Assembly (NCBI GenBank): GCA_965116885.1
Contig: OZ220741.1
Location: 960,001 to 1,024,000, forward strand
Direction of reading: 5' to 3'
DNA from: Candidatus Latescibacterota bacterium
GTDB taxonomy: Bacteria > Latescibacterota > UBA2968
Length of the DNA: 64,000 nucleotides
Shown: positions 6,030 through 26,240 of the stretch, piece by piece
Layout of the letters: every line of letters begins with the position of its first letter
Position numbering within the stretch: position 1 is the first letter of the stretch
Made by a program: the position numbers and the translations under genes
Notes under the pieces: generated by a model
Told to the model about the DNA's origin: nothing
Database searches by the model: none
What the model saw: only the letters and a program-made list of their open reading frames with translations

Positions 6030-6043
6030 AGGAGAGAAACACG

Positions 6044-7279: not shown

Positions 7280-7285
7280 TGGCAA

Positions 7286-7325
7286 CTGGATCGCGGACGG
7301 GACGGCACAGGGGCCGTCCCCTACA
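7286..7325. repeat. REP-like palindrome
   Basis: CTGGATCGC..GGGACGGCACAGGGGCCGTCCCCTAC. Confidence 0.8.
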
Positions 7326-7343
7326 ACATGGCAGGATTTATTG

Positions 7344-7871
7344 ATGCATAAGATGACAACTAAAACCTTCTGGATTGCGGTCGCCCTCCTCCTCTTCTCC
7401 GGATCGGGGTTGTGTGCGCCGTATAAAATCTATATCTTTATGGGAGAAACCTGTCCGGTCTCGCGGCATTACACCTTGACACTCAAAGAACTGCACGCAG
7501 AATACGCATCTGAAAAACTCGAATTCATCGGCGTATTCCCCAATCGACTCTCCACCCCAGCCACGATTGCCGCGTTCAAAAAAAAATACGCCTTGCCATT
7601 CACCTGCATCGGGGATTCCATCCACACATGGGTGAACCGACTGGGCGCAACGATCACGCCAGAAGTCGTCGTTGCCGACACATCGAACACCGCCATCTAT
7701 CGGGGTCGCATTGACAACACCTTTGCGGATTTGGGCAAAAGACGCCGCATCGTCACCGCCCACGACCTCACAGATGTACTGAAAGCCCTCAAGAACGAAA
7801 AACCCCCGGTATTTCGCCAGACCCAGGCCATTGGCTGCATCATAACCTCATGGCAAAACACAAAGGAATAA
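7344..7871 (+). CDS. Exported redoxin / thioredoxin-like (AhpC-TSA) protein
   Basis: Signal peptide; CPVS, GATITPEVVV, YRGRID, C-terminal AIGCII; ORF-track start at 7089 overlaps uxaC and was trimmed. Confidence 0.82.
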   Translation: MHKMTTKTFWIAVALLLFSGSGLCAPYKIYIFMGETCPVSRHYTLTLKELHAEYASEKLEFIGVFPNRLSTPATIAAFKKKYALPFTCIGDSIHTWVNRLGATITPEVVVADTSNTAIYRGRIDNTFADLGKRRRIVTAHDLTDVLKALKNEKPPVFRQTQAIGCIITSWQNTKE

Positions 7872-7875
7872 AGCC

Positions 7876-9414
7876 ATGCGACCACTTGCCCTCTCCATAC
7901 TCGCGATCCTCCTCGCCGTTACTTCGCCACGCGCGGAAGCCCCCACCTTTAGCAAAGACGTCTCGTCCATCATATACAACAACTGCACATCGTGCCATCG
8001 AGACGGTGAAATAGGGCCTATGCCCCTCACAAATTACAGCGAAATCTCGGCTTATGCAGACATGATCAAACACGTCACAGAAACCCAGTACATGCCCCCG
8101 TGGAAACCCGATTACAACTACAGCCAGCACATCGGCGCAAGAACACTCACCAAAACAGAAATCAACACAATATCAAACTGGGTCAACGCCGGCTTTCCCC
8201 AGGGCGACATCGCCCTTGAAGCCCCCATGCCGGAATTTCCAACAGGCTCTGTACTCGGCACCCCCGACCTCGTACTCACCATGGCAGAACCCTTTACCAT
8301 CCGCGGCGACAATGAAGACCAGTACCAGGTCTTCGTCATCCCAACCCACCTCACAGAAGACCGGGAAGTCGAAGCCGTTGAATTTCGACCCGGCAACAGC
8401 AGAATCGTTCACCACGCCCTCATCGGCGCCGACATCACGGGCACTGCCCGCCAAAGAGACCTCGAAACCCCGGAATACGGTTACGAATCCTTTGGTGCAT
8501 TCGGCGCGCCAACCGCTGTTGTCCTCCCTGGATATACACCCGGTGCAAAACCCCCGATATATCCCAAAGGCGTTGGACACATACTGCCCAAAAACTCCGA
8601 CTTACTGATCCAGGTACACTACGCACCCTGGCCACTTGCAGAATCCGATCAATCCAGCATCAACATATTCTTCAAAAAAGAACCCATCGAAAGAGAAGTG
8701 GGTTTTATCACCTTCGCACCGCTCACCACGGACGGTGAAAGACTGAGCAGACTATTCAGGGTCCTGCTCGGAGAAGAGCGACACGGCGGCACCCCCGTAG
8801 AAAAAATCCAAATTAGCGATATCTTTATCATCCCGAAAGATCGAATCAAAACATTTCACACGACACTCTTCATCAATCGGGACATCAGCCTCCTGTCCAT
8901 CTATCCGCACATGCACTTGTTGGGCAAATCCTGGGAAATCTATGCCACGGACCCACAGGGCAACCGCACCAACCTCATCCGTATTGAAGACTGGGATTTT
9001 AACTGGCAGGGCAATTACACCTTCACCCAATATCAAAAAATAACTGCGGGATCCCAAATCCACGCCATTACCACCTACGACAACACCACAAACAACCCGC
9101 TCAACCCCAACTATCCCCCCCGCCAATCGACCTGGGGCGAAAAAACCACCGATGAAATGCTCCTGGCTGTCATGGAATACGTACCCTACCGACAAGGCGA
9201 TGAAAACATCGCCCTCACCGTTGGCCGGGGCGGCGAAATAAGCATAGACTTCAACGGCAATGGACAAAAGGACTTTGCCGACTTCCTCCTATTCGTCCAG
9301 AACTTTGGCCTGAGCCGAAGCGACACCAGCTATCAGCGTCACTTTGACCTCAACGAGGATGGACACATCAACTTTACCGACTTTATCATCTTCGCCAATC
9401 AATATGCGCAATAA
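7876..9414 (+). CDS. Secreted copper type II (PHM/DBH-like) monooxygenase with N-terminal c-type heme domain and C-terminal dockerin-like module
   Basis: CTSCH and MPPW; VHH, QVHY, PHMH, DEM copper ligands; DFNGNGQKDFADF and DLNEDGHINFTDF repeats. Confidence 0.82.
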   Translation: MRPLALSILAILLAVTSPRAEAPTFSKDVSSIIYNNCTSCHRDGEIGPMPLTNYSEISAYADMIKHVTETQYMPPWKPDYNYSQHIGARTLTKTEINTISNWVNAGFPQGDIALEAPMPEFPTGSVLGTPDLVLTMAEPFTIRGDNEDQYQVFVIPTHLTEDREVEAVEFRPGNSRIVHHALIGADITGTARQRDLETPEYGYESFGAFGAPTAVVLPGYTPGAKPPIYPKGVGHILPKNSDLLIQVHYAPWPLAESDQSSINIFFKKEPIEREVGFITFAPLTTDGERLSRLFRVLLGEERHGGTPVEKIQISDIFIIPKDRIKTFHTTLFINRDISLLSIYPHMHLLGKSWEIYATDPQGNRTNLIRIEDWDFNWQGNYTFTQYQKITAGSQIHAITTYDNTTNNPLNPNYPPRQSTWGEKTTDEMLLAVMEYVPYRQGDENIALTVGRGGEISIDFNGNGQKDFADFLLFVQNFGLSRSDTSYQRHFDLNEDGHINFTDFIIFANQYAQ

Positions 9415-9420
9415 AAAAAG

Positions 9421-9476
9421 GGCAACCACGAAGGTTGCCCCTACAACAATGGGACTGCACAGGGACCGTCCTCTAC
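9421..9476. repeat. Two GTAG-type REP palindromes between convergent genes
   Basis: GGCAACCACGAAGGTTGCCCCTAC and GGGACTGCACAGGGACCGTCCTCTAC. Confidence 0.75.
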
Positions 9477-10351
9477 GACACAACCCGCGTTGTCTCGCCA
9501 TCGGACGCCAGCAGGGGTAGCTGCCCCCCGTGGTGAACCCCGGGACCGTACAAAACCGCCTGTTGTTCAGGCGTCAACTCACTCACCCAATCGCCATAGC
9601 GTTCCTCGGGCGTAAAATACTTACCCACGGCGCGAGCCGCTGCGCGAGAAGCGTATTTATAAAGCACAGAACGCCGCTCCCCATCGCTGCGCCACGGCAG
9701 CGTACCATGCGTCATCGTCTCCGCAAAAAAGAGCACATCGCCCGCTTGCATCACCGGTTGATAAACCAGCCCCATATCATCCTCTACGGAACGCACCTCA
9801 GCGGGTGTCGGCTCCGCAGTCTTATGACTCCCCGGCACACAGGCAAACCCCCCATCGCCCTCATTCACATCCGTCAACTGCCACGCCACAGTAATACCCC
9901 GACAGAAAATCTTCCCATTCTGCTGGTGATACCACACCGACTGGCTAAACGGCTCCCCGCCACCGTGCAGTGTATGCCCCTCTGCACCCTTGTGCGCGCT
10001 GATCAACAGCGGCCCGTGATCCAGGCGAAAACCCTTGCCGCTAAACTCATTCAAACGACTCACCACAACCGGATGAACCAGCAACTTCCGAAACGGCTCG
10101 CGATAGGGTTCGGGCCAGCCCAACATACCCGTAAGCTCGCGCCTACCCTCTTTACCCGTAAGCGCGGACGACCCTCGCGCCAGACCCCCATCTTCAATAG
10201 ACCGCGTCCTGATCTCATCCCCATAGTGATCAATCGCATCATTGCACGCCTTGACCTCATCTGCGGACAATGCCCCCCGCACGACCAGATAGCCGCGCAG
10301 GTCAAAAAAGTACTTCTCCTCTTCACTCACTGTATAAAGATTGTTGCCCAT
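9473..10351 (-). CDS. PhyH-family Fe(II)/2OG enzyme with HxG motif
   Basis: YFFDLRGYL, FRLDH, LHGGG, GGFACVPGSHK, THGT, RRSVLYKY. Confidence 0.88.
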   Translation of the reverse strand: MGNNLYTVSEEEKYFFDLRGYLVVRGALSADEVKACNDAIDHYGDEIRTRSIEDGGLARGSSALTGKEGRRELTGMLGWPEPYREPFRKLLVHPVVVSRLNEFSGKGFRLDHGPLLISAHKGAEGHTLHGGGEPFSQSVWYHQQNGKIFCRGITVAWQLTDVNEGDGGFACVPGSHKTAEPTPAEVRSVEDDMGLVYQPVMQAGDVLFFAETMTHGTLPWRSDGERRSVLYKYASRAAARAVGKYFTPEERYGDWVSELTPEQQAVLYGPGVHHGGQLPLLASDGETTRVVS

Positions 10352-10374
10352 GGTAAAACGCTCCTATTTTTATA

Positions 10375-11232
10375 CTACCCCTCTATCCGCACGCTCCCAT
10401 CCTCACAGACCTCCAGATACGGCACGCGGCCTTTGTGATTGGAATAGGGACCATACATAACCGACAACTGCTCGGGCGTCATATCCTCGACAATCTCTCG
10501 ATCCCAATAAATCTCCGGCGGCGACACCTCCTGAGAAGGACCGCCCCGCGCACACGTGCGCCCCGTGTATTTGAACAAAATGGACCGCCGCGTCGTATCC
10601 AACTTCCACGGCGTTGCGCCGTGTGCTTGCGCGCTATCCATAAAAAAGACGACATCGCCAGCCTCCACCACCGGCTGCTTAATCAAACCCATATCGTCAT
10701 CTCCAGTACGCACGCCACCTGGCATCGGAAACATCGCCTTGTGACTCGAAGGCACACAGGCAAACCCACCCATCCCCTCTTTGCAATCGTGCAATTGCCA
10801 CGCCACAGTCACACCGCCAACCCAGGTCTTGCCATTTTGATGGTGATACGCGACATGCGGGCGATGCGGCTCGCCATTTCCGTGCATCGTATGGCCCGCC
10901 GTACCCTTATTACTCACAATAAACATCGGACCGTGATCCAGCCGAAACCCTTTATCGCACATCACATTGAGATACTTCACCAGCACCGGGTGTGCCAGCA
11001 TCTCCCGGAAAGGTTCACAATCCGGTTTTGGAAATTCCAGAATACCGGGCAACATAGGACGCCCCGTACCGGCAAAAGCGACCGACTCCCTCGCCGTTGA
11101 ACCGCCGACCTGAACCCGGTCCCAGTAGCGATCCACAATATCATTCGCCCGCGCAACCTCTTCCTTTGACAACACGCCTTTCACGACGAGGTATCCCGTC
11201 AAATCCCAGAAATATCGCTCGCGCGCATCCAT
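10375..11232 (-). CDS. PhyH-family Fe(II)/2OG enzyme with HxN motif, paralog of the adjacent gene
   Basis: YFWDLTGYL, FRLDH, MHGNG, GGFACVPSSHK, AHGA, RRSILFKY. Confidence 0.88.
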   Translation of the reverse strand: MDARERYFWDLTGYLVVKGVLSKEEVARANDIVDRYWDRVQVGGSTARESVAFAGTGRPMLPGILEFPKPDCEPFREMLAHPVLVKYLNVMCDKGFRLDHGPMFIVSNKGTAGHTMHGNGEPHRPHVAYHHQNGKTWVGGVTVAWQLHDCKEGMGGFACVPSSHKAMFPMPGGVRTGDDDMGLIKQPVVEAGDVVFFMDSAQAHGATPWKLDTTRRSILFKYTGRTCARGGPSQEVSPPEIYWDREIVEDMTPEQLSVMYGPYSNHKGRVPYLEVCEDGSVRIEG

Positions 11233-11345
11233 AAGGCTTCTCCTTTTGAGATAGGTAAATACTTTTCAACATGAACATCAATGAACCTGAAATTTCTAAA
11301 AGTCAATTTTTTTCGACAGGGCAGGGTGAGAAAAACGGCTTTTTA

Positions 11346-12215
11346 TCAAAACAAATCCATCTGCACAGGCGCCTCTACAACCTGCTCCGCGGGCCAGGGC
11401 GGCATCTCGCCGACATCTATATCCCCAGACAACATCTGGTGAAAATGGCGCGCCAAATGCGGTGCGTAAAAATCATCGGGCGCGTGCATAAACACAAACG
11501 GCGTTCGCCCCTCGCGTATCCAATTGGCAACCACCGGCACCCACTCTGCAAGAAGCGGCAGATTCTTCTCAACCTCCGGATGACCGACAAACCTCACAAA
11601 AGGAAAACGCCCCGTCGCAAGAAACCGAACGGGAACCTTTGGCTTCTTTCGCTGTGCTTCGCGCCCTGCAACATCATCCGTCTGAGCACTGTGCAACCCC
11701 CGCGTATCAAACACCACGCGATCCACGCCATGACTTTTGAGCACCGCATGCAACTCATTTTCTGCCTCGGCAAAAAACAGATGGTGCCGAATCTCCACAG
11801 CATAAGAAAATGTATCGGGCAGCGTGTCCAAATACCTGTCCAATACCGGCAAATCGCGCGGCCCATAAGAGGGAGGCAACTGCAAAAATGACGGACCCAC
11901 CCGATCCTGTAACACCGTGAGAACATCTACAAACGCGGCCGTCTCCAGTTCGGCATTTCGCAACCGCTTATCGTGGCTAATCGCACGCGGAAACTTGAGC
12001 GCAAAACGAAACCCCGGCGGCGTATCAGCCAGCCAGCGCATCGCGGCCTTATCCGAAGGCAAACCGTAAAAAGTGGTATTCCCCTCCACAGTATTAAACA
12101 CAGAGGCGTATTGCTTCAAAAAATCTTTCTGCACAACATCGGGCGCAAACAACTCGCCCACCCACTCCTTATTGCCCCAAATCGGACAGCCTAAAAAATA
12201 ACGTTCGATACTCAT
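11346..12215 (-). CDS. DUF72 (YecE-like) protein
   Basis: GCPIW, YASVFNTVEGNTTFYGLP, KFPRAISH, FLQLPP, AVEIRH, FMHAPD. Confidence 0.9.
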   Translation of the reverse strand: MSIERYFLGCPIWGNKEWVGELFAPDVVQKDFLKQYASVFNTVEGNTTFYGLPSDKAAMRWLADTPPGFRFALKFPRAISHDKRLRNAELETAAFVDVLTVLQDRVGPSFLQLPPSYGPRDLPVLDRYLDTLPDTFSYAVEIRHHLFFAEAENELHAVLKSHGVDRVVFDTRGLHSAQTDDVAGREAQRKKPKVPVRFLATGRFPFVRFVGHPEVEKNLPLLAEWVPVVANWIREGRTPFVFMHAPDDFYAPHLARHFHQMLSGDIDVGEMPPWPAEQVVEAPVQMDLF

Positions 12216-12223
12216 AACAGCCT

Positions 12224-13792
12224 CTATATAGACCCCTTGCCACCCACCCACAACCCCACAACACACGGCTGATCCTTATCGCTAAACGGATTGACCAAAT
12301 CAGTATTAAACCCACCCCAATCACTCGACTTTTCCATCTCGCCACTGCTCCGCTCACCCGTCAAAATTGCCATCCAATCCACCGCTATCGGTGTCCCCTC
12401 TCCCACATCGGACAAATCGATACGCGTATCGCCGCCCTCGGGTAAATACACCAGATACACATCCCCTGCCAGCGCCAGACAAAGACCGCGCTCCACATAC
12501 TCATTATCCCCAACCATCTGATTAAACGGCAGCCCCTCCAAAAAATCCCGCAACTCCCGATACCTCATCCAGCTCTCTGGCACCGGCTCAAACTTAATCA
12601 AATCCCACGACGTATTGTCATAATAATAACACGGATATGCACCAGCCGCATAAATCGCCCACGTCCACTTCAAAATATCATCCCACTCGGCAGTCGTGCG
12701 CCCGCGATAAGTCTTGAGCTGTTCCTCGGCAAGCTCATACCCGTATTCCACATTCACATAAGGCGTACCCGAATTCCGCATCCTGCGAATCGCCTCTCGA
12801 TTATAGCGCGCCGCATCGGACAAATGCACCTGATCCGTCACAAAATCCGACTGGCGATCCGGTTCAGACAGCGTACCCGCGTTTCGAAGTACAACATCGT
12901 GCACCGTCAGCAAATGCCCATACGCATCTGCCTTGCGAATAATAGCCATGCGATCCAGAACATAATCGTGATCGCCCATCTCGCGAAACAGATTCTTGCT
13001 CTCCTTGCCCACATCCCAGATCACATTCCCAAACGCCTGGTACCGCGCAACCGCATAGCGCCAGAACCGATCATCTGCCTCTGTCTCGCGCGCTGGCCAA
13101 TTCACCTGCTTATTTTGCACCTGCAACATCAGATGAACCACAATCCCCTTCCCGTGCAAATAGCGCATCAAGCGGTCAAAATCGCGAAAAAAATCGATAT
13201 TCATCCGCTCGTGATCCGGCGCATCATTCGCGCCCTCGAACAAATACATCTCCGGAGGACCAAAAAGGTACTCGGGCAACATCTGGCGCGTATCGTCATT
13301 CGGCCTTGAACCAAAACCCGTATGGGCGTACAAATTCATAACAAAACAATTGAACCCCCGGCTCGCAACCAGATCGACATGCCGATAACACCGCTCGGCA
13401 TCTGCCTGGTGATAGCTAAACAACCAATCGCACTCAAAACCCAGATATAAAAACGGCGTACCATCAGACCATGCAAACCGCTGTGGATATTCCGGATCAA
13501 TACCCACCAGACCATGCACATCAGCGTTCTCATTCCCCACACACTGCACACGCCACTCAGCCCCATCCAGCCCCGAATGCTCAGACCGCGAACGCCCCGT
13601 CCAAACACCTTCTACACCCGGACTAAACCGCACAACCCATTTATCCCCATCAAAAAAACCGGGCAAATCTTCAACCACCTCGCCCAGTTCATGAGTAAAA
13701 GTTGCCGTCACCTCGACCGCAAACGGATTTTTATCCCCCACATCCGAATACAATTCAAAATCGCACACCGCGTATTGTTGCACCTCTACCAT
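12224..13792 (-). CDS. DUF5060/DUF4038 putative glycoside hydrolase (apiosidase-like)
   Basis: NPF..V.ATF, GFFDGDKW.VRFSP, DGTPF, YAVARYQAFGNVIWDVGKE, NVEYGYE, YLVYLPEGG. Confidence 0.8.
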   Translation of the reverse strand: MVEVQQYAVCDFELYSDVGDKNPFAVEVTATFTHELGEVVEDLPGFFDGDKWVVRFSPGVEGVWTGRSRSEHSGLDGAEWRVQCVGNENADVHGLVGIDPEYPQRFAWSDGTPFLYLGFECDWLFSYHQADAERCYRHVDLVASRGFNCFVMNLYAHTGFGSRPNDDTRQMLPEYLFGPPEMYLFEGANDAPDHERMNIDFFRDFDRLMRYLHGKGIVVHLMLQVQNKQVNWPARETEADDRFWRYAVARYQAFGNVIWDVGKESKNLFREMGDHDYVLDRMAIIRKADAYGHLLTVHDVVLRNAGTLSEPDRQSDFVTDQVHLSDAARYNREAIRRMRNSGTPYVNVEYGYELAEEQLKTYRGRTTAEWDDILKWTWAIYAAGAYPCYYYDNTSWDLIKFEPVPESWMRYRELRDFLEGLPFNQMVGDNEYVERGLCLALAGDVYLVYLPEGGDTRIDLSDVGEGTPIAVDWMAILTGERSSGEMEKSSDWGGFNTDLVNPFSDKDQPCVVGLWVGGKGSI

Positions 13793-13804
13793 CGGATAAA
13801 TCCC

Positions 13805-13897
13805 CTATTTATAAGACTTAATCACATAATACAACAACACACCCAGCACAATAACCACAACCCCCACCCAGATCAGCGCCCAAAACTGAACATCCAT
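13805..13897 (-). CDS. 30-aa single-pass membrane protein (below ORF-track cutoff)
   Basis: MDVQFWALIWVGVVVIVLGVLLYYVIKSYK; ATG overlaps upstream TGA (TGATG) and the ORF fills the intergenic gap. Confidence 0.65.
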   Translation of the reverse strand: MDVQFWALIWVGVVVIVLGVLLYYVIKSYK

Positions 13898-14706
13898 CAC
13901 TCACCATCCTCAATCGACACATCACGCACATCATCTGTCCAATCAACCCAGATATCATCTCCCGGGGGTTCTTCCTGAAGCTGGGGCATATCGTTCAGCT
14001 TGAAATCGTACAACACCGCCTTTCGGATCTGCCGCGAATAATTGGCCGACGCCATATGCCCAATGCGGTGGTGCCAGAAAACAATATCGCCGGGTTCGCC
14101 ATGCGTCTGATATGAATTCTCGTCACAAGATTGAAACGCCTCTCTATGCTTCTCCATCCGGGGCAATGGCTCCCTGAGATAGCGCGTCTGGTAATCGAAA
14201 AAAAACGTGCGATGGCTCTTAGGCCACACCGTAAAACCACCGCCATCTTCGGGCACATGATCGATATAACCCACCACTGCAAAATTGAACGCATGGGCAT
14301 CCACATGCAAATGACGCGGTTGGCGCGGGACATCGCCATAGGGCAACGTACAATAAATACCGCGCACACCTGCAGGCTCTGGAAAATTCCCCTTACCCAG
14401 CATCTGTTCAGCAGCACCCCACACAACCGGATTCTTTGCCAACAGCTCAATCATCCAGGGCTCTCTGCCCACCTTGCGGTATTGCCAGCGATAACCGCGC
14501 TTGTAATTGCTCTTATCCATTGATTCCTCTTCCGGCTTAATGGGACCGACCCAGGAATCCGGATCATCTTTCTTCAAACTCGGCGGCGGATCGTCCCACA
14601 GGCGTTCCCGCGCACGGGCGCACAACTCCGGATCCAGAGCGCCCTTCTTCACCAGATAGCCCTCGCGTTTAAAAAAACGGATCTCGTCTTCTGTAAGCAC
14701 AGACAT
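13897..14706 (-). CDS. PhyH-family Fe(II)/2OG dioxygenase, canonical triad
   Basis: FFKREGYL, LHVD, GGFTVWPKSH, GDIVFWHHRIGH, R.AVLYDF. Confidence 0.88.
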   Translation of the reverse strand: MSVLTEDEIRFFKREGYLVKKGALDPELCARARERLWDDPPPSLKKDDPDSWVGPIKPEEESMDKSNYKRGYRWQYRKVGREPWMIELLAKNPVVWGAAEQMLGKGNFPEPAGVRGIYCTLPYGDVPRQPRHLHVDAHAFNFAVVGYIDHVPEDGGGFTVWPKSHRTFFFDYQTRYLREPLPRMEKHREAFQSCDENSYQTHGEPGDIVFWHHRIGHMASANYSRQIRKAVLYDFKLNDMPQLQEEPPGDDIWVDWTDDVRDVSIEDGE

Positions 14707-14797
14707 GACTCTCTCCTCTTTTGTGCGAATTGATACTGTCAATCCAATTATAGGCACTTACCTATCGTGAAAAAAGTATAAAGTGACCTGATACAAC

Positions 14798-14828
14798 AAA
14801 AAACCCGGTCTTAATAATGAGACCGGGG
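14798..14828 (-). terminator. Intrinsic terminator
   Basis: CCCGGTCT/AGACCGGG stem followed by a T run on the minus strand, downstream of 14875..15162. Confidence 0.65.
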
Positions 14829-14874
14829 AGAAATTTCATATTTGTAGTGGCGCATTCGAGAAGCCCTTTTCTGT

Positions 14875-15162
14875 TCAGGGCTTAGCAAAGGTCATAATGA
14901 TCGAAACGGCTGTACCGACATTTGCAAGCAACACAACGACCAGCAGGCCAATAAGCCACCTGAAATTGCTGTTATTGCGAGTATCCATGTTGGTCAACCG
15001 GGTGTCCATGTTGGTCAACCGAGTGTCTATATTGGAAAAGCCGTTGTCAACGCGGGTTTCAAGGCCAGTCAAGCGCGTGTTCATTTGTTCAGCAATTCCC
15101 TCGACGCGCGCCAGGCGGGCGTCCATTTCGGACAGTTTGTCTTGTGGTGTCGGAATCTGCAT
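14875..15162 (-). CDS. Small coiled-coil protein with C-terminal membrane anchor
   Basis: Heptad repeats (DTRLTNM) encoded by 21-bp tandem units at 14978-15040; FRWLIGLLVVVLL TM helix. Confidence 0.8.
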   Translation of the reverse strand: MQIPTPQDKLSEMDARLARVEGIAEQMNTRLTGLETRVDNGFSNIDTRLTNMDTRLTNMDTRNNSNFRWLIGLLVVVLLANVGTAVSIIMTFAKP

Positions 15163-15206
15163 GGGTTTCTTTTTTTGTGTGTAGTGGTCTATACTCCGTC
15201 TATGGA

Positions 15207-15235
15207 ATTATACCAGACCTTTTAGAATTAAGCAA
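15207..15235 (-). promoter_or_regulatory. Sigma70-type promoter with extended -10
   Basis: TTGCTT-17 nt-TATAAT, TG dinucleotide before the -10. Confidence 0.6.
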
Positions 15236-15298
15236 GTCCTATCGGCGTTTTTTAGCATTGCCCTGTTATACTTCGCCTGTGTCTTTACTCTAATTTAC

Positions 15299-15649
15299 CT
15301 ACCCCTCATCCCGCTGATACGACGCCGTAATCTCGTGATCTATACCCCCGCGAATATTGAAACGGCTGATCACCTCCATCTCGACCGGATCGCACAGCGC
15401 CACCAGATCGTTCAAAATCTGATTCGTCACAGGCTCCATATAAATCCCCTGATCTCGGAACGACCAGAAATAGTGCTTCAGCGACCGCAACTCCACACAC
15501 CGCTGACCTGGAACATACCAGACCACAATCGTCGCAAAATCCGGCTGCCCCGTCTTGGGACACAGCGACGTAAACTCCGGAAACGTAAACTCAATCGTAT
15601 AACGCCGCTCCGGATTCGGATTGTCAAACGCCTCTAATATGGAACTCAT
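15299..15649 (-). CDS. queF: QueF-type nitrile reductase (preQ1 synthase family), catalytic Cys/Asp intact
   Basis: PEFTSLCPKTGQPDFA, ELRSLKHYF, SFRDQGIYME, RGGI. Confidence 0.88.
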   Translation of the reverse strand: MSSILEAFDNPNPERRYTIEFTFPEFTSLCPKTGQPDFATIVVWYVPGQRCVELRSLKHYFWSFRDQGIYMEPVTNQILNDLVALCDPVEMEVISRFNIRGGIDHEITASYQRDEG

Positions 15650-15703
15650 ACCTCATCCTTCACACTTCACATCTTATCTGCGTTCATCTGCGTCATCTGC
15701 GGA

Positions 15704-16048
15704 TCATACTTCATCCTCGCGCTCGTACATCACAGACACCCGCGTCTCAATCCCCCCCCGCACCGTAAAATCACCCGTCACATCTAACGTCACAGGATCG
15801 CAGGCCGCTACAAAATCATCTACAATCCTATTAACCACACCCTCGTAAAACACCTTCTCATCCCGAAACGACCCCAAATACCGCTTCAGCGACATCTGCT
15901 CCACACATACCTCTCCCGGCACATAAGAAATCGAAATCGCGGCAAAAATCGGCTGCCCCGTCACCGCGTACAGCGCCGTAAACTCCGACGTCTCAAAATC
16001 AATCGTATAAACCCGCCCGCGCTCGGGATTGTCAACACATTCTAACAT
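15704..16048 (-). CDS. QueF paralog lacking catalytic Cys and Asp
   Basis: Colinear with QueF: EFTALYAVTGQPIFA, EQMSLKRYL, SFRDEKVFYE, VRGGI; start at ATG 16048, 4 nt after the upstream stop. Confidence 0.82.
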   Translation of the reverse strand: MLECVDNPERGRVYTIDFETSEFTALYAVTGQPIFAAISISYVPGEVCVEQMSLKRYLGSFRDEKVFYEGVVNRIVDDFVAACDPVTLDVTGDFTVRGGIETRVSVMYEREDEV

Positions 16049-16052
16049 AAAA

Positions 16053-17219
16053 TCACTCAAACGGCACCAGACTCGCGCCCACCGGATCGGGACTCGTGGG
16101 CCGAATCGGCATCTCCTCATAAGAACGATAAGATATATCCAGATGCGGCGTCTCAACCCGTCTATACCCCTCATACCGCGAATCTATCAACGCCTCCAGC
16201 GCACCGGAAATCAGCAACGTGCGCTCAACCGGATACTGCGGTCGCCCCGTCAAAAACATCTGCTGAATATTCAAACTCAAATAACTAAAATGCGCATGCG
16301 GATTATCCGGCAAAAAAACGCGCATATTATCCACCTCTCCCCCGCGCCGCGCCGCAAAACCCCACCCCCGCGTGTACCCATTCAACATAAACGTCGCCGC
16401 CGTCAACCCATCTGCATACTCCAACAAAAAAACAGCCGGATTCTCGCAATGCGCGCGCACATCGCCATCCTCCTTCGCCTCAATATGCGCCACCGCCGCC
16501 GCGTACAAATCGCGATCCCACGCATCCGACGCCCAGACATCATCCCCCTCCAAACACTGCACCGCCACAATCCCCGTCTCCCCGCCCGCCCGGCGCTCAA
16601 CCATACACTGCAGCGTCTCCAGCGCGTGAAAACCATAAGAATCAAGCCCACCAAAAGCCACCGACATCGCCATCTCGATCTCCGTATCCAAATCATACTC
16701 AAGCCACGGCTTGCGCCATGCAAGTGGCAGAGACGACCCCGCCATAAACGGCACCTCTATCTCCCGCGCGCGATCGCACATCCACTTTGCATCGTGCCAA
16801 TTATACGAAAGATGCTTATCGCTAAACACCGGCACAGACCGCCCCGACGAAGCGAACACCCCGCAAATCTGCTCAAAAAAATACTTCCGCGGATACATAT
16901 GTTGCTCCTTCTCATTCCACGGATAATCGCCGTGCTCGCCAATCAGCAACACCCCATCCACCGCCAGTTCATCACCGCCCAAAGTCAACGCCTGATTAAT
17001 ACTCCCGAACATCGGCACACCGTATTCCTCTGCAATCGCGCACCCGATATCATCTCTGAAATGCACCTGATCCAGATACATCGACGCCACATCCACCTCT
17101 GGTGAAAGCAACCCGTCATCTGTTGGAAACCCCTTCAAAAACTTCGTCACAATCACATCGGCATGTGACCGCGGAAAATACGACGTAATCACCGCTGCGA
17201 TTTTCTTTCGATCAGCCAT
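16053..17219 (-). CDS. Conserved hypothetical protein, Gfo/Idh/MocA-like oxidoreductase fold
   Basis: SHADVI, VDGVLLIGEHGDYP, PVFSDKHL, FMAGSSLP, YGFHALE; GGAGG RBS. Confidence 0.7.
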   Translation of the reverse strand: MADRKKIAAVITSYFPRSHADVIVTKFLKGFPTDDGLLSPEVDVASMYLDQVHFRDDIGCAIAEEYGVPMFGSINQALTLGGDELAVDGVLLIGEHGDYPWNEKEQHMYPRKYFFEQICGVFASSGRSVPVFSDKHLSYNWHDAKWMCDRAREIEVPFMAGSSLPLAWRKPWLEYDLDTEIEMAMSVAFGGLDSYGFHALETLQCMVERRAGGETGIVAVQCLEGDDVWASDAWDRDLYAAAVAHIEAKEDGDVRAHCENPAVFLLEYADGLTAATFMLNGYTRGWGFAARRGGEVDNMRVFLPDNPHAHFSYLSLNIQQMFLTGRPQYPVERTLLISGALEALIDSRYEGYRRVETPHLDISYRSYEEMPIRPTSPDPVGASLVPFE

Positions 17220-17295
17220 AGCTTTTCCCTCCTGTCTCGTTGTGTAAACGTTAAATTATACCACAAGGAGTTCAACGACAACAAAAAAAACCTTC

Positions 17296-17367
17296 TGGAT
17301 CGCACGGGACGGCACGGGGGCCGTCCCCTACAACATCATGCCGCAATGACGCATGCCTCGCCCCTAC
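17296..17367. repeat. Composite REP element
   Basis: CTGGATCGC-GGGACGGCACGGGGGCCGTCCCCTAC-ATGCCGCAATGAC-GCATGCCTCGCCCCTAC; near-identical composite at 54271-54340. Confidence 0.8.
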
Positions 17368-17466
17368 ACTGACCACTGACTACTAAATATTCTTACATCC
17401 TCACACCCAAAATTTGGTATCTTAAACACCCTGAACACAACCACAATCTTTACCAGGAGGAATCAC

Positions 17467-18072
17467 TTGACCGAAGTCAAAGCCACCAACATCGTCTGGC
17501 ACGAAGGCCATGTCGCGCGCAAACAGCGCGAAGACCTACTCGAACAAAAAGGCGCACTCATCTGGCTCACCGGACTGCCCAGCTCGGGCAAAAGCACCAT
17601 CGCATTCACCACAGAACACGCCCTGATCGAACGCGGGCGCATGGCCTATGTACTCGACGGCGACAACATCCGCCACGGCCTCAACAAAAACCTCGGATTC
17701 TCAGCCGAAGACCGCGCAGAAAACATCCGCCGCATCGGCGAAGTAGGCAAACTCTTTACCGACGCCGGTATCATCACCCTATCCAGCTTTGTAAGCCCCT
17801 ATCGCACCGACCGCGACAGCGTGCGCGAACTCATGGAAAACAAAAACTTCATCGAAGTATTCATCAACACCCCGCTCGACGTATGTGAAGAACGCGACCC
17901 CAAGGGCCTGTACAAAAAAGCGCGCACAGGTGAAATACCCAACTTCACCGGCATCTCTGACCCCTATGAACCCCCCGAAAACCCCGAACTCGTCATACAC
18001 ACCGTTGACAGCACGCCACAAGAGGCCGCATTGCAAATCATCTCCCTGCTCGAAACGCGCGGAAACATCTGA
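17467..18072 (+). CDS. cysC: Adenylyl-sulfate kinase
   Basis: WLTGLPSSGKST, LDGDNIRHGL, DRAENIRR, RDPKGLY, FTGISDPYE; TTG start with AGGAGG RBS. Confidence 0.96.
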   Translation: MTEVKATNIVWHEGHVARKQREDLLEQKGALIWLTGLPSSGKSTIAFTTEHALIERGRMAYVLDGDNIRHGLNKNLGFSAEDRAENIRRIGEVGKLFTDAGIITLSSFVSPYRTDRDSVRELMENKNFIEVFINTPLDVCEERDPKGLYKKARTGEIPNFTGISDPYEPPENPELVIHTVDSTPQEAALQIISLLETRGNI

Positions 18073-18074
18073 CA

Positions 18075-18734
18075 ATGCCCATCATCGACCTCACCATGCC
18101 CATTGCCGACCACTTCCGCTGGCCCGTTGAGCGCAGCCTAAAAAGCAGTTTTGAAACCGGCGACATGGCGCAAGTGACCCACATGGGATGGGCAGTCCAC
18201 GGATTCACGCACGTCGATGCGCCGCGCCACATGTTCCCGGAAGGACCCACCACCAGCGACACCAAACTCGACCAAATCGTGGGACAAGCCGCAGTCGTCG
18301 ATCTCTCGGGCATCGCGCCGGAAACCCCGATCACCGAAGCGCAGATTCGCGCTGCCGGACAACACATACGATCCGGAGACATCGTCGTCATGAAAACGCG
18401 GTGGGACGAAATAGAATCGCATCAAACCCCCGAATTCTGGACCCGCGCGCCCTACATGTCGCGCGCTGCCGCAAAATGGTTGCGCGCGCAAAACATCCGC
18501 GCCATAGCATTTGACTTTCCGCAGGACTATCCCATTCGCCAATTGCTCAATAACCAGAGAGCACCCCTTTCCGAATTTGTAACCCACGACATCCTCTTGC
18601 GCGAAGGCATTATCCTCATCGAATACATCTGCAACACGGGCATGATAGCAACAGACCGCGTATCCTTCTTCGCCCTACCCTTAAAAATCCCCGAAGCCGA
18701 TGGCGCACCGGCTCGCGTCATCGCAATACCATAA
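18075..18734 (+). CDS. Cyclase family metal hydrolase (kynurenine formamidase-like)
   Basis: IIDLT, HGFTHVDAPRH, ALPLKI..ADGAPARVIA. Confidence 0.88.
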   Translation: MPIIDLTMPIADHFRWPVERSLKSSFETGDMAQVTHMGWAVHGFTHVDAPRHMFPEGPTTSDTKLDQIVGQAAVVDLSGIAPETPITEAQIRAAGQHIRSGDIVVMKTRWDEIESHQTPEFWTRAPYMSRAAAKWLRAQNIRAIAFDFPQDYPIRQLLNNQRAPLSEFVTHDILLREGIILIEYICNTGMIATDRVSFFALPLKIPEADGAPARVIAIP

Positions 18735-18750
18735 CCCCCGGGAAACCACC

Positions 18751-20115
18751 ATGATCTACCACCAACTCTTCGCCCAAATTGACCGCACCGTACGCGTTGG
18801 CGTCATCGGCACCGGACACTACGCCACAGCCCTCGTCACACAATCGCGCGTCGTCGATCAACTCCACGTACCCGTCGTCTGTGACACAAACCCGGACGCA
18901 GCTCAAAATGCATATCATCACGCCGGCCTGGACACCGACAAAACCATCATAGCCGACACCGCCCAACAGGCTGCCGCAGCCATAGAACAGGGCAAATATG
19001 TCATCCTCACCGACGCCATGCAAATGATGGACCTGCCCCTCGACGTCATCGTAGAATCCACAGGCGTCCCGAGTGCAGGTGCGAAACACGGCATAGAAGC
19101 CATTCGACACGGCAAACACGTCGCCATGGTATCCAAAGAAACCGACGTCACCGTCGGACCCATCCTCAAACACCTCGCAGACAAAGCCGGACGCGTCTAT
19201 ACCGCTGTTGACGGGGACCAGCACGGCCTGCTCATGGGCCTTGTACAATGGGCGCGCAGCCTGGGCCTCGAGGTACTCTGCGGAGGCAAATCACTGGACT
19301 CCAACCGCGTTTACGACCCCCAGACCAACGCCATCGTCTGGTCCAAAGGCAAAATCCAGATCCCCGACGAACGCATATTCTCTACCCAAAATCCCTCTGC
19401 CTACATTGCACAACGCCGCCAGATCATGGGCGAACTGGGCGCCATCGCCGGTTATGACGTCACCGAACTCACCATCGCCGCCAATGCTACCGGACTCATC
19501 CCCGACACAGACACCCTGCACACACCCGTAGTCCGCACCGTTGAAATACCCGAAGTCCTCGCACCCCGAGAAGACGGCGGCATCTTATCCCACCGCGGCG
19601 TCATCGACTGCGTCTCCTGCCTGCGCCAGGCAAACGAACCCGGCCTCGGCGGCGGCGTCTTCATCGTCATCGCCTGTGAAAACGCCTACTCCCGCCACAT
19701 CCTCACCACCAAAGGACTCATCCCCAACAAAAAAGGCACCACAGCCCTCATCTACCGACCCTACCACCTCTGCGGCGTTGAAACACCCATCACAACACTC
19801 GTCGCGGGCCTCTTAAACCTGCCCACAGGCACCACCGACTACCACCCGTCCTTCGACATAGTAGGCCGTGCAAAAGAACCCCTCAAAGCCGGCGACCAGA
19901 TCCGCAACGACCACAGCAAAAAAATCGAATACCTCATGCGCCCCGCGCTACCCGTCGCGCCCGACAACCCCCTCCCCTTCCACATGGCCAACGGCAATAC
20001 CCTCACCCGGGACATCCCCGCTGGCGCATTCATCACCGCAAGCGCAATACAACCAAAAGACAACGACCCCCTCTGGACGCTTCGCAAAGAACAAGACGCT
20101 CATTTTTTACAATAA
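18751..20115 (+). CDS. NAD(P)-dependent oxidoreductase, homoserine-dehydrogenase-like with C-terminal SAF domain
   Basis: VGVIGTG, ESTG, KHVAMVSKETDVTVGP, DGDQHG, ANATG, GGGVF, YRPYHL.G.E. Confidence 0.85.
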   Translation: MIYHQLFAQIDRTVRVGVIGTGHYATALVTQSRVVDQLHVPVVCDTNPDAAQNAYHHAGLDTDKTIIADTAQQAAAAIEQGKYVILTDAMQMMDLPLDVIVESTGVPSAGAKHGIEAIRHGKHVAMVSKETDVTVGPILKHLADKAGRVYTAVDGDQHGLLMGLVQWARSLGLEVLCGGKSLDSNRVYDPQTNAIVWSKGKIQIPDERIFSTQNPSAYIAQRRQIMGELGAIAGYDVTELTIAANATGLIPDTDTLHTPVVRTVEIPEVLAPREDGGILSHRGVIDCVSCLRQANEPGLGGGVFIVIACENAYSRHILTTKGLIPNKKGTTALIYRPYHLCGVETPITTLVAGLLNLPTGTTDYHPSFDIVGRAKEPLKAGDQIRNDHSKKIEYLMRPALPVAPDNPLPFHMANGNTLTRDIPAGAFITASAIQPKDNDPLWTLRKEQDAHFLQ

Positions 20116-20148
20116 AAAAAACCGGGTACATCGCAAAGATGTACCCGG
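20113..20148. terminator. Intrinsic terminator between convergent genes
   Basis: CCGGGTACATC-GCAAA-GATGTACCCGG with a T run on the minus strand. Confidence 0.8.
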
Positions 20149-20169
20149 CTGTTCTTTACCTCTGCTCTT

Positions 20170-22848
20170 TCACCCCTTCAAAAAACCCCGCAACACCGTA
20201 TGCAAAATCCCACCATTGCGATAATAATCGATCTCCACCGGCGTATCGATACGCACCGTCGCAGAAAACGACTTCACATTCCCATCCTCATCCGTCGCCG
20301 TCACCGTCACATCTTGCAAAGGCTGCAAATCATCGCTCAGCCCGGTAATATCGTACACCTCCCGCCCCGTAAGCCCCAGCGACTCGGCATTCTCGCCCGC
20401 CACAAACTCCAGCGGCAACACCCCCATACCCACCAGATTGCTGCGGTGAATGCGTTCAAAACTCTCCACAAGCACCGCGCGCACACCCAAAAGTAACGGA
20501 CCCTTAGCCGCCCAATCGCGCGACGACCCCGAACCGTACTCCGCGCCCGCAATCACAATCGACGGCACGCCCGCATCCACATACCGCATCGCCGCATCGT
20601 AAATACTCATCTGCTCACTCGAAGGCAGGTGCACCGTCACACCGCCCTCTGTCCCTGGCGCCAGCGAATTGCGAATGCGAATATTCGCAAACGTACCCCG
20701 CATCATCACCTCGTGATTACCCCGCCGCGAACCATAAGAATTGAAATCCTTCGGCTCAACCCCCTTTGAAATCAAAAACTGCCCCGCCGGACTATCCACC
20801 GCAATCGAACCCGCCGGAGAAATGTGATCCGTCGTCACCGAATCGCCCAATCGCGCCAGCACCCGCGCGCCTTTAATATCTGTAATCGCATCTAACTCAG
20901 GCGACAAATCCACAAAAAACGGCGGCTCCTGCACATAAGTACTCTCCGCCTGCCACCCATAGAGATCCCCCGCTTGCCCACCAACCGCATTCCACATCTC
21001 ATTGCCCTCAAACACATTGCCATAGCGCGCCTCGAACATATCCGGCTTGAGCGCCCGTGCAATCGTATCGCCAATCTCATCCTGACTGGGCCAGACATCG
21101 TGCAAAAACACCGCATTGCCATCCCCATCCACCCCTATCGGCTCCGCAGTCAAATCCAGATCCACCCGCCCCGCCAGGGCATACGCCACAACCAGCGGCG
21201 GCGACGCCAGATAATTCGCCTTCACATGCGGATGCACGCGACCTTCAAAATTGCGATTGCCACTCAACACCGACGCAGCAACCAGGTCATCCTCGTGAAT
21301 CGCGGCAACCACCGGATCGGGCAACGGCCCGCTATTGCCAATACACGTCGTACAGCCATACCCCACCGTATAAAAACCCAACTGCTCCAAATACGGCGTC
21401 AAACCCGCCTGATCGAGATAATCCGACACCACGCGCGAACCCGGCGCCAGACTCGTCTTCACATGCGCGTGAACCTTCAACCCCTTCTCCACCGCCTTCT
21501 TCGCCAACAAACCAGCGGCCACCATCACAGACGGATTGCTCGTATTGGTACAACTCGTAATCGCCGCAATCACCACCGCCCCGTGCCCCAGCTTGCCATT
21601 CGTCCTCTTTTGCACCTCATCATCACTTAGTCCAAAACCACTATTGCCCACCGGTGCGCGCAACGCGCCTTCAAACGCCCCCTTCATCTGCCCCAGCGCA
21701 ATGCGATCCTGCGGGCGTTTTGGACCCGCCAAACTCGGCTCCACCGTACTCAAATCCAGTTCAAGCGTATCCGTAAACCGCGGCTCTGGCGTATCATCTG
21801 TACGGAACAACCCCTGCGCCTTCGCGTACCGCTCAACCACATCCACCTCTTCTGCCGTGCGACCCGTGCGCGCCAAATAATGCAACGTCTCATCATCCAC
21901 CGGGAAAAACCCCATCGTCGCCCCGTATTCCGGCGCCATATTTGCAATCGTCGCGCGATCAGCCAGCCCAATACCCGTCAACCCCGTACCGTAAAACTCC
22001 ACAAACTTATCCACCACGCCCTTCTCGCGCAACATCTGAACCACCGTCAACGTCAAATCCGTCGCCGTCGTACCCTCGGGCAACTGCCCATCCAACTTGA
22101 ACCCGACAACCTCGGGCGTCAGCATATAAATCGGCTGCCCCAGCATCACCGCCTCTGCCTCAATACCCCCCACACCCCAGCCCACCACACCCAGGCCATT
22201 AATCATCGTCGTATGTGAATCTGCCCCCACCAGACTATCGGGAAAAGCCACGCCATCCCGGGCAATAACCCCCTTCGCCAGATACTCCAGATTGACCTGA
22301 TGCACAATACCCGTCAGAGGTGGCACCACCCTGAAACGCTCAAACGCATTCGCACCCCAGCGCAAAAACTCATACCGCTCCCGATTGCGCAAAAACTCGA
22401 TCTCTGCATTTCTCCGCAACGCATCCGAATTTGCAAAACTATCCACCTGCACCGAATGATCCACCACCAGATCCACCGGAATCAACGGCTCAACCCGACT
22501 TGTATCGCCCCCCATGCGCCCCATAGCCGAACGCAACGCCGCCAGATCCACCAGCGAAGGCACACCCGTAAAATCCTGCAACACCACCCGCGCGGGCTTA
22601 AACGGTATCTCTATCGGATTGGGATTGGTCGCATTCCAATTCGCCAGCGCCGCCACATCCTCCTCCCGCACCTGATACCCATCCAGATTTCGCAGTGCCG
22701 CCTCGAGCAGCACCCGCACGGAAAACGGCAAAGTCGATACCGCCCCAATGCCATCAGCTTCCAATCGATCCAGCCGAAAAATTGCCAGATCACCTGCCAT
22801 AGTAGAAAGTGTATCCCGTGAATTCAAAGGATTATGCGTTTGACTCAT
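20170..22848 (-). CDS. acnA: Aconitate hydratase A
   Basis: [68 protein letters not shown]. Confidence 0.98.
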
Positions 22849-22872
22849 AAACAAGTCCTTCTCTAAAAGGTT

Positions 22873-23103
22873 TCAAGCTACTTTCTCAGGAAAATGGTAC
22901 AAAGGTACTGAATGGACAGGCGTACCAGTTGCGACCCGCTCAATCTCGCGGGCAGTCTCTTCGGTAATAATCCTGTCGCCACACACATCGCAAACCAGTG
23001 CCGGAACACCTTCGATTACGACCACCTGGCCATCGCGACGAGAACTAAACACGACGTGTTTATTCAGATATTGACCCTCATGACAAAGCGTACATTTGTT
23101 CAT
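22873..23103 (-). CDS. YgiT/MqsA-type zinc-finger protein (orphan antitoxin-like)
   Basis: CxxC near the N-terminus and VPALVCDVCGD. Confidence 0.82.
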   Translation of the reverse strand: MNKCTLCHEGQYLNKHVVFSSRRDGQVVVIEGVPALVCDVCGDRIITEETAREIERVATGTPVHSVPLYHFPEKVA

Positions 23104-23165
23104 TCTTCACCTCTCTCACCCCAGGGGTGAGAATATTGAATCTATGAATCATTCAGAGCACTACG

Positions 23166-23378
23166 TCAGATAGAGATATCGCTTTTCTCATCTACTATAA
23201 CGATGAGTTGACGCACGATAGGTACCAGTTTGTGGGGAACCTGCATAGCTGTATAACCTTGCTCAAAGGCGGTCTCATCTTCGGCAATGGTCTCTCCTTC
23301 TGTCCGGGATTCGACATGGTCAATGACCTCCTGGACGCGCTTCTGATTCCAACCCTTGGGATATTTATTTTTATCCAA
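23166..23378 (-). CDS. Small antitoxin-like hypothetical protein
   Basis: KYPKGWNQKRVQEVI..E....IAEDE....MQVP..LVP.VR.LI pattern; start uncertain (TTG 23378). Confidence 0.55.
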   Translation of the reverse strand: MDKNKYPKGWNQKRVQEVIDHVESRTEGETIAEDETAFEQGYTAMQVPHKLVPIVRQLIVIVDEKSDISI

Positions 23379-23476
23379 GCTTATATTTTTTTTTGATTGA
23401 GAAACGGCAAAACTACTGGATCGCGGCTCAACTTCACCTACTCCATCGCCTTGCATTAAAAACGGATTTATCACTC

Positions 23477-24501: not shown

Positions 24502-24514
24502 AACTGACAACTAC

Positions 24515-26205: not shown

Positions 26206-26240
26206 CCCACCCTACCACCCAACGGCTGGTACTTCCAGCT

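Follow-up and report, generated by a model that had tools for sequence, protein, structure and literature searches.

A conserved QueF paralogue lacking catalytic residues is encoded in tandem with a canonical-looking QueF in Candidatus Latescibacterota

Introduction

What does a QueF-family protein do when it lacks the residues for nitrile reduction and is encoded directly upstream of a QueF that has them? The question is raised by a 64,000-nucleotide (nt) stretch of DNA from Candidatus Latescibacterota bacterium (assembly GCA_965116885.1, contig OZ220741.1, positions 960,001 to 1,024,000 of the forward strand), referred to at its full length as the window, which carries two single-domain queF genes in tandem on its minus strand. 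The upstream gene (15704..16048, minus strand, 114 amino acids (aa)) encodes a paralogue without the catalytic residues, called here the pseudo-QueF, and the downstream gene (15299..15649, minus strand, 116 aa) encodes a canonical-looking unimodular QueF, called here the live QueF. A reading made from the sequence alone (the original prediction) had described the pair as a split, E. coli-type bimodular QueF, with a catalytically dead copy upstream of a divergent active one. It proposed that conserved adjacency of the two genes and the ratio of nonsynonymous to synonymous substitution rates (dN/dS) of the upstream copy be checked, and it regarded absence or decay of that copy in relatives, together with full activity of the downstream copy alone and no complex, as evidence against its proposal.

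QueF converts preQ0 to preQ1 by nitrile reduction dependent on reduced nicotinamide adenine dinucleotide phosphate (NADPH). In B. subtilis QueF numbering, Cys55 makes the covalent thioimide, Asp62 is the proton donor, and Glu97 and Glu78 hold the base (PMC13740343, PMC5372742). The QueF motif is the site of NADPH binding, and V. cholerae Lys96, the equivalent of Lys80, coordinates the 2′-phosphate (PMC13740343). Two five-membered rings make up the homodecamer of unimodular QueF, whose 10 active sites lie where subunits meet (PMC5372742), and in bimodular QueF, the motif and the Cys/Asp/Glu97 residues lie on separate modules (PMC5372742, PMC13740343).

Layout of the tandem queF genes

The pseudo-QueF and live QueF are 49% identical (55 of 112 residues, ungapped, expect value (E) 4e-41). 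The pseudo-QueF matched PF14489 (Pfam) with E 3e-27 (95.1 bits versus 27.3) and TIGR03139 (NCBIfam, unimodular preQ1 synthase) with 127.6 bits, and the live QueF matched the same profiles with E 4e-29 and 166.6 bits, respectively; the curated cutoff of TIGR03139 is 86.9 bits. The pseudo-QueF also aligned without gaps to B. subtilis QueF (PDB 4F8B/4FGC) with E 8e-21. Read along the minus strand, the gene order is a gene for a 388-aa protein outside any Pfam family (16053..17219, minus strand), a gap of 4 nt before the ATG of the pseudo-QueF gene, the pseudo-QueF gene, a 54-nt spacer (15650..15703, minus strand, from reading the sequence) and the live QueF gene. A Shine-Dalgarno-like purine-rich sequence, AAGGATGAGG, lies in the spacer directly before the ATG of the live QueF gene. 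The mechanically called open reading frame (ORF) of the pseudo-QueF extends to 16174 and overlaps the upstream gene; its start was set at the position of MLxCV in the relatives.

A scan for promoters and terminators gave counts no higher than in shuffled sequences. No Rfam family, preQ1 riboswitches included, was above threshold in the whole window, and with relaxed thresholds the region 14700-17600 gave no preQ1 riboswitch and three weak matches (E 1.1-3.5) far under their gathering scores. No further que gene was found among the 50 ORFs of the window, and no queuosine gene was found in 27 scanned ORFs (of 53 listed) from four distant related loci. The tandem pair of full-length T-fold genes and the lack of other que genes in the window, as claimed in the original prediction, were therefore both borne out, the former in coordinates and motifs by the ORFs, PF14489 and TIGR03139.

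Residue changes in the pseudo-QueF

In the ungapped alignment to B. subtilis QueF, the nucleophile Cys55 is replaced by Tyr27, the proton donor Asp62 by Ile34 and the QueF-motif Lys80, the ligand of the NADPH 2′-phosphate, by Met52. The family-invariant Pro56 is Ala28, and the pocket residue Phe33 is Val5. Glu78 (E50), Glu97 (E69), Lys83, Tyr85, Arg and the RGG(I) motif are retained. The C-to-Y and D-to-I changes and the retained E..SLK.Y, FYE and RGGI that had been noticed earlier are real by alignment to PDB 4F8B; the changes at Lys80, Pro56 and Phe33 had been missed.

To place these changes within the family, columns were compared among 128 canonical representatives from an exhaustive library search, 78 sequences of the clade of the pseudo-QueF (the dead clade) and 22 sequences of the clade of the live QueF (the live clade). 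Columns were counted as family-conserved when conserved in at least 85% of the 128 canonical representatives, which gave 29 columns. The dead clade keeps 24 of the 29 and has changed five: Cys55 to Tyr (78/78; Cys in 100% of canonical representatives), Asp62 to Ile or Val (78/78; Asp in 100%), Lys80 to Met (76/78; Lys in 98%), Pro56 to Ala or Glu, and Phe95 to Tyr, Phe or Ser. Glu78, Glu97, Lys83, Tyr85, Arg and RGG are present in all 78. In alignment A1, Tyr occupies the Cys55 position in 58 of 59 sequences, and a clade-specific Cys-Val at residues 4-5 replaces the canonical x-Phe (Phe33) in 53 and 54 of the 59, respectively. Judged by its residues, the dead clade is without exactly those assigned to chemistry and cofactor binding, and those assigned to the fold and to base binding are kept. 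Because the nucleophile, the proton donor and the lysine for the NADPH phosphate are all lost, the pseudo-QueF would be unable to carry out NADPH-dependent nitrile reduction.

Sequences without Cys55, Asp62, Glu97 or the motif "were considered non-QueF" in the methods of PMC5372742. The pseudo-QueF has Glu97, Glu78 and the profile score of the family, lacks Cys55 and Asp62, and carries EQMSLKRY, which fits five of the eight positions of the published pattern E(S/L)K(S/A)hK(L/Y)(Y/F/W) and does not qualify as the motif. Under the rule of PMC5372742, the protein is thus a QueF-family homologue and not a QueF.

Properties of the live QueF

The live QueF holds Cys30 (Cys55), Asp37 (Asp62), Glu53 (Glu78) and Glu72 (Glu97), all present in 22 of 22 genomes. 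Its motif, ELRSLKHY, has Arg for Lys80 and fits six of the eight positions of the published pattern; Phe95 is Tyr and His96 is Met. The live clade keeps 27 of the 29 conserved columns, and the two changes, Lys80 to Arg and Phe95 to Tyr, are each found in 22/22. Arg at Lys80 is rare yet conservative, and Met at the His96 position also occurs in 14 of 149 other family representatives. Cys55, Asp62, Glu78, Glu97, the motif and the profile score were all found, and from its sequence the protein looks like an ordinary preQ0 reductase.

The downstream motifs reported in the original prediction (Cys/Asp/Glu kept, ELRSLKHY and GIYME) were confirmed, but its description of this copy as divergent did not hold up. 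Homologues of the live QueF grade unbroken from 95% to 58% identity into ordinary QueFs (5741 matches). The ELRSLKHY / IYMEP signature is limited to the closest 15 clusters (77-95% identity), and the next relatives have EL(K/R)SLK.Y / IFFE.

Genome survey and substitution rates

Among 5.8 billion protein clusters searched, 104 contained homologues of the pseudo-QueF; of these, 62 are Cys-less (61 with Tyr, one with His), 41 have Cys and one is truncated at the nucleophile position. The Cys-less homologues extend to ~50% identity. In a library clustered at 50% identity, the dead clade appears as one representative (172 bits), and the next match has 109 bits. When 185,579 species genomes were scanned with patterns specific to the dead clade, 21 loci were found, all labelled Candidatus Latescibacterota. 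Some metagenome-assembled genomes in the clusters of the pseudo-QueF carry the label Gemmatimonadota, so the taxonomy of such genomes is possibly inconsistent.

By tblastn, the order and orientation of the 388-aa gene, the pseudo-QueF gene and the live QueF gene are identical in 21/21 loci, as in the window; the other neighbors vary in the more distant loci. Identity to the window proteins ranges over 67-93% for the pseudo-QueF, 80-97% for the live QueF and 74-97% for the 388-aa protein. Both queF reading frames are intact in 22/22 genomes (the 21 loci plus the window). With start codons chosen by script, the queF reading frames share 4 nt in 12 of the 22 genomes and 1 nt in one, and elsewhere they are separated by 8-128 nt.

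Values of dN/dS were calculated for pairs of genomes by the method of Nei and Gojobori (NG86), using only pairs with 0.05 < dS < 1.5. For the pseudo-QueF, the median was 0.249 with a range of 0.10-0.78 (170 of 231 pairs usable), and no pair reached 1; the medians were 0.103 for the live QueF (161 pairs) and 0.124 for the 388-aa gene (174 pairs). The codon of the Tyr that replaces Cys55 varies synonymously (TAC in 19 genomes, TAT in three). The pseudo-QueF is under purifying selection, ~2.4-fold more relaxed than that on its live partner.

The two checks proposed earlier thus gave adjacency in 21/21 related loci and a dN/dS typical of purifying selection, and the upstream copy was neither absent nor decaying in any relative, since it is intact in 22/22 genomes. 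The claim of an intact, functional, non-decaying upstream copy without catalytic residues therefore stands on adjacency, dN/dS and the synonymous Tyr codons. That the copy is a functionless decaying duplicate is very hard to credit: three functional residues are lost and the gene evolves faster than its neighbor, but the frame is intact in all 22 genomes, dN/dS is 0.25 with no pair at 1, 24 of the 29 conserved columns are kept across 78 sequences and the replacement residues are themselves fixed.

Among the 21 loci, the pseudo-QueF genes at L011:7995-8345 and L017:8001-8354 bear the N-terminal NPNPERRYTIEF of the live QueF, and L011 also has LEAF for xCV. Downstream of the live-like N-terminus, both keep the Tyr, Ile and Met. 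This pattern has the appearance of gene conversion between the tandem paralogues.

Phylogenetic placement

In three quick maximum-likelihood trees, the Cys-less sequences fell on one side of a single branch, with Shimodaira-Hasegawa-like approximate likelihood ratio test (SH-aLRT) values of 99, 98 and 88.8, the last obtained after masking seven diagnostic columns. The trees were built from 115-133 columns and contained 8-10 of the 22 pairs and the first 45-60 canonical representatives; fragments and proteins of more than 200 aa were excluded, as were, in the later trees, the long-branch sequences P0121, P0149 and P0176. The live clade nests among Latescibacterota-like canonical QueFs, and both the dead and the live clade have long stem branches. 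When the two clades were forced to be sisters, the log-likelihood was 8.7 above that of the free quick tree, with an approximately unbiased test P value (p-AU) of 0.65. Given ~115 columns and gene conversion, the trees are compatible both with an old separate lineage of the pseudo-QueF and with a local duplication.

A fused protein and other Cys-less sequences

One protein of 304 aa, P0129, consists of two TIGR03139-type modules and is the sole such protein among the 150 best family representatives. Its 90% cluster has two members, found on eight and two contigs (10 in total) of public metagenome assemblies. In the N-module (EFTMLTP...HPVF / NLLSFRKY), Cys55 is replaced by Thr, Asp62 by Val, Glu78 by Asn and Lys80 by Leu, and the Glu97 equivalent and RGGI are retained. 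The C-module is canonical (EFTSLCP...QPDY / ELKSLKQY / HME). The order of a dead module followed by a live one, which the original prediction had noticed for the two genes, thus recurs within a single chain. A module without Cys, Asp and Lys80 precedes a canonical one, and the C-module has Met at His96 like the live QueF; P0129 differs from the gene pair in being one chain and in lacking also Glu78 from its N-module, and it differs from the classical YqcD-type protein. The N-module is just 29% identical to the pseudo-QueF of the window, and in the tree the C-module lies outside the live clade. In an AlphaFold2 model of P0129, the predicted local distance difference test score (pLDDT) was ~96 for the C-module and 53-70 for the N-module, and the predicted template modeling score (pTM) was 0.46, so that the packing of the modules could not be read from it. 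By an argument of the Rosetta-stone type, which is indirect, the fusion suggests that dead and live modules work together.

Three short Cys-less sequences, P0062, P0064 and P0136, share the triple change at Cys55, Asp62 and Lys80; P0064 carries the NCBI label Gemmatimonadota. Look-alikes of the pseudo-QueF beyond PF14489 were sought in the ESM Atlas, where the best score, 0.79, was at chance level. In phage genomes, 23 records contained QueF homologues, all with less than 60% identity (at most 48% among the 15 listed).

Proposed role of the pseudo-QueF

The reading preferred here, to which a probability of about 0.5 is given, is that the upstream gene encodes a conserved non-catalytic QueF paralogue that co-assembles with the live QueF as a base-binding structural or regulatory subunit. 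The two subunits would be made from one transcript, often by coupled translation. Having kept the T-fold, the residues that build its barrel and the two base-holding glutamates, the pseudo-QueF may still bind a 7-deazaguanine-like base. It would join a mixed T-fold oligomer, in which dead and live subunits either share rings or form one ring each that stack together, and would serve there as a structural or regulatory component that binds ligand without reducing it, and the live QueF would provide the preQ0-to-preQ1 activity. By homology, one subunit would give Cys55, Asp62 and Glu97 and its neighbor the motif. Because active sites in this family lie between ring subunits, a paralogue that keeps the fold should fit sterically into such an oligomer. 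Co-transcription, co-assembly, ligand binding and any regulatory effect are what we infer; the residues lost and retained, the conservation, the gene order, the purifying selection and the fused form were observed.

Several points weigh against this role. The pseudo-QueF evolves ~2.4-fold faster than the live QueF at nonsynonymous sites, and translational coupling is not universal, as the spacer reaches 128 nt in some genomes. The live QueF has all the residues needed as a homo-oligomer and appears self-sufficient. In a mixed ring, the dead motif side would lack Lys80 and would therefore weaken the site of the live neighbor, with no clear benefit; the dead subunit would also add a dead site of its own, and five-membered rings cannot alternate 1:1. 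In a mirror-tree (partial Mantel) test that controlled for distances of the 388-aa neighbor, there was no signal between the two QueFs beyond shared phylogeny (partial r 0.175, reached in 414 of 5000 permutations). A complex prediction for the live and dead proteins gave a median score of 0.36 against 0.17 for one control, which falls short of the required margin of 0.20 and carries no weight for binding in either direction. Loss of Cys alone may also not equal zero activity, since the E. coli variants C190A and C190S reportedly still convert preQ0 to preQ1 (PMC13740343).

A stronger form of the co-assembly reading is doubtful: that the pair is an obligate hetero-oligomeric QueF, in which the non-reducing, ligand-binding subunit gates or tunes preQ0 reduction, perhaps as a sensor of preQ0 or preQ1 at its dead sites, and which, with P0129, would represent an independent, as yet unfused re-run of the duplication, inactivation and fusion that led to bimodular QueF. 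If this were true, the evolution of asymmetric T-fold enzymes could be tested in extant proteins.

Alternative explanations

Of the competing explanations, the one that survives best, at odds well below even, is that the pseudo-QueF acts alone as a homo-oligomer and that adjacency reflects shared regulation. It might bind or carry a base (as a preQ0 buffer, chaperone or sensor), or it might perform new chemistry on a purine- or pterin-like substrate through the invariant Tyr or through the clade-specific Cys4 beside the Phe33 position. Fixation of Tyr in place of Cys55 (58/59; 78/78) suggests a role for the Tyr itself, and Glu97 is invariant on the "Cys side" of the protein even though that site cannot reduce. 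The Cys-Val that replaces x-Phe at residues 4-5 (53 and 54 of 59) is specific to the clade, the separate Cys-less branch (SH-aLRT 99, 98 and 88.8) fits an old separate functional lineage, and the mirror-tree test gave no specific co-evolution of the two copies. However, six of the 59 clade members do without Cys4, as do the three distant sequences lacking Cys55, so it is non-essential. The tandem linkage is strict in 22/22 genomes, with a 4-nt overlap in 12, and the neighboring genes point to no other pathway; moreover, a comparable dead module and a live one make up a single chain in P0129.

It is unlikely that both copies, perhaps with the 388-aa neighbor, use a different substrate from preQ0. 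The three genes stay together in 22/22 genomes, other que genes are absent from the window and from the 27 ORFs of the four distant loci, the Rfam scans gave no preQ1 riboswitch, Lys80 (to Arg and to Met) and Phe95 are altered in both copies, and both clades have long stem branches. Yet a queF gene often stands alone in genomes, and the relatives of the live QueF form an unbroken series that leads into ordinary QueFs. At least 8000 proteins from many phyla belong to the 388-aa family, whose gene has a PF02126-family neighbor in distant loci. Finally, the live QueF keeps every preQ0-contacting and catalytic residue named in a review (PMC13740343).

The proposal that the two genes are a divided version of the bimodular (YqcD-type) QueF of E. 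coli and V. cholerae (PDB 3BP1, 3S19), or a step on the way to it, with the pseudo-QueF as the motif-donating N-module, now appears very improbable. In both systems a Cys-less unit comes first and a catalytic one second, bimodular QueF arose by duplication and loss of Cys from the N-module (PMC5372742), and the pseudo-QueF retains the motif Glu78. Bimodular QueF is, however, one chain of ~280 aa with the active site between its two modules, whereas two genes for 114 and 116 aa are present here. Against the bimodular profile TIGR03138, the two copies score only 48.8 and 50.6 bits (cutoff 293.45), matching only model positions ~179-254 in the C-module, and both are above the cutoff of the unimodular TIGR03139. 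The motif lysine is Met in 76/78 dead-clade sequences, whereas the V. cholerae N-module retains it as Lys96 (PMC13740343). Without this lysine, the pseudo-QueF is ill suited to be the half of a split enzyme that binds NADPH. The live QueF retains a complete motif of its own and would need no donor, and it fits more of the published motif pattern (6/8) than the pseudo-QueF does (5/8). With two unimodular profiles and an upstream copy that lacks the motif lysine of an N-module, the label "split bimodular (E. coli-type)" given in the original prediction does not apply.

Relation to known systems and database annotation

The nearest known system is the unimodular (YkvM-type) QueF of B. subtilis (PDB 4F8B/4FGC/5UDG), with which both copies share a single T-fold, an ungapped alignment and a TIGR03139 score above the cutoff. 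Both are short (~115 aa), without the additional residues that the 165-aa B. subtilis protein has at either terminus; the pseudo-QueF lacks Cys55, Asp62 and Lys80, and two paralogous genes are present here where B. subtilis has one gene for a homodecamer.

A family member with a changed function is QueF-L, the archaeosine synthase of Crenarchaeota. QueF-L retains the catalytic Cys, its thioimide serving amidino transfer on tRNA-bound preQ0, whereas the pseudo-QueF is bacterial and has Tyr at the Cys position. As described in PMC5699537, QueF-L is a homodecameric T-fold protein of the QueF family with no preQ0 reduction and no NADPH site.

An active subunit paired with a paralogous subunit is also found in the same pathway in eukaryotic QTRT1/QTRT2, where QTRT2 is non-catalytic; that heterodimer is experimentally proven, is built from TIM barrels and acts at a different step. 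Bacterial pseudoenzyme subunits are seldom documented, and the pseudo-QueF shares its pathway with this active/inactive tRNA-guanine transglycosylase pair.

A member of the 90% cluster of the pseudo-QueF is named "preQ(1) synthase" at NCBI. The name follows from passing the TIGR03139 cutoff, a score that reports homology and not activity, and as a function name for a Cys-less protein it is probably wrong. As the pseudo-QueF passes this "equivalog" cutoff, a genome that carries both genes is annotated as having two reductases.

Full-text literature searches, which left most subscription journals outside, turned up no account of a QueF paralogue without Cys, of heteromeric QueF or of a pseudoenzyme in this family. 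The conserved pseudo-QueF is real and apparently undescribed, and it is so far confined to one candidate phylum and a few metagenomic sequences. Duplication and Cys loss are seen within the unimodular lineage at the stage of two genes and, in P0129, at a fused stage, and the pair and P0129 are living material for testing how homomeric ring enzymes turn asymmetric. The fixed Tyr, Ile and Met amount to a natural experiment on the QueF pocket, and QueF is being engineered as a nitrile reductase (PMC13740343).

Adjacent genes

The 388-aa protein had no sequence match in Pfam, NCBIfam or PDB; its family comprises at least 8000 hypothetical homologues in several phyla. Its AlphaFold2 model had a pLDDT of 94.5, and the top Foldseek matches were GenD2 (6nor, 15% identity) and glucose-fructose oxidoreductase, with a best template modeling (TM) score, to 6nor, of 0.59 when normalized to the query and 0.65 when normalized to the target. 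The protein is thus predicted to have a GFO/IDH/MocA oxidoreductase-like fold. No Gly-rich dinucleotide motif is obvious in its N-terminal strand-loop, AAVITSYFPRSHAD.

In the three most distant loci, the order is a gene of the phosphotriesterase family (PF02126), the 388-aa gene, the pseudo-QueF gene, the live QueF gene and a gene for an M42 peptidase; the PF02126 genes (L018:5714-6808, L019:5647-6804 and L020:1527-2555) have the same orientation as the 388-aa gene. This neighbor suggests functional ties of the 388-aa protein that are separate from queF. As the 388-aa family is far wider than the queF pair, its link to queF is treated as syntenic and only possibly functional.

On the other side of the pair, a 95-aa ORF (14875..15162, minus strand) contains repeated DTRLTNM heptad-like units and a hydrophobic C-terminal segment and gave weak matches to coiled-coil families. 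Five of the 21 loci have it 3′ of the two queF genes, at varying distance.

Additional features of the window

The guanine-cytosine (GC) skew of the plus strand is −0.13 to −0.37 in every 2-kb bin of the window (1..64000), and the skew at third codon positions, calculated on the coding strand, is −0.56 for plus-strand genes and +0.46 for minus-strand genes. Skews of the related loci (L001-L021) were 0.20-0.28 for close relatives and 0.04-0.22 for more distant ones. Such extreme compositional asymmetry between the strands has the look of a very strong mutational bias, tied to replication, in this lineage of Latescibacterota.

A cluster of the Pup-proteasome type (44599..51146, minus strand) contains two genes of the Pup-ligase family, two proteasome subunits and an AAA ATPase with proteasomal OB domains. 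Within it, a 63-aa ORF (47676..47867, minus strand) ends in ...RQRTGE at its C-terminus and may resemble a modifier of the Pup/UBact type.

The window also encodes five paralogues of the PhyH (phytanoyl-CoA dioxygenase) family and three sulfatases, with PhyH/sulfatase entries at 3186..4895, 9473..11232, 13897..14757, 26241..27659, 29594..30976 and 37379..38809, together with a GH10 xylanase, an apiosidase-like hydrolase and three large cohesin/FlgD-Ig/Por-tail surface proteins (54533..63924). This set of PhyH proteins, sulfatases, xylanase and surface proteins is a signature of a polysaccharide-degrading lifestyle.

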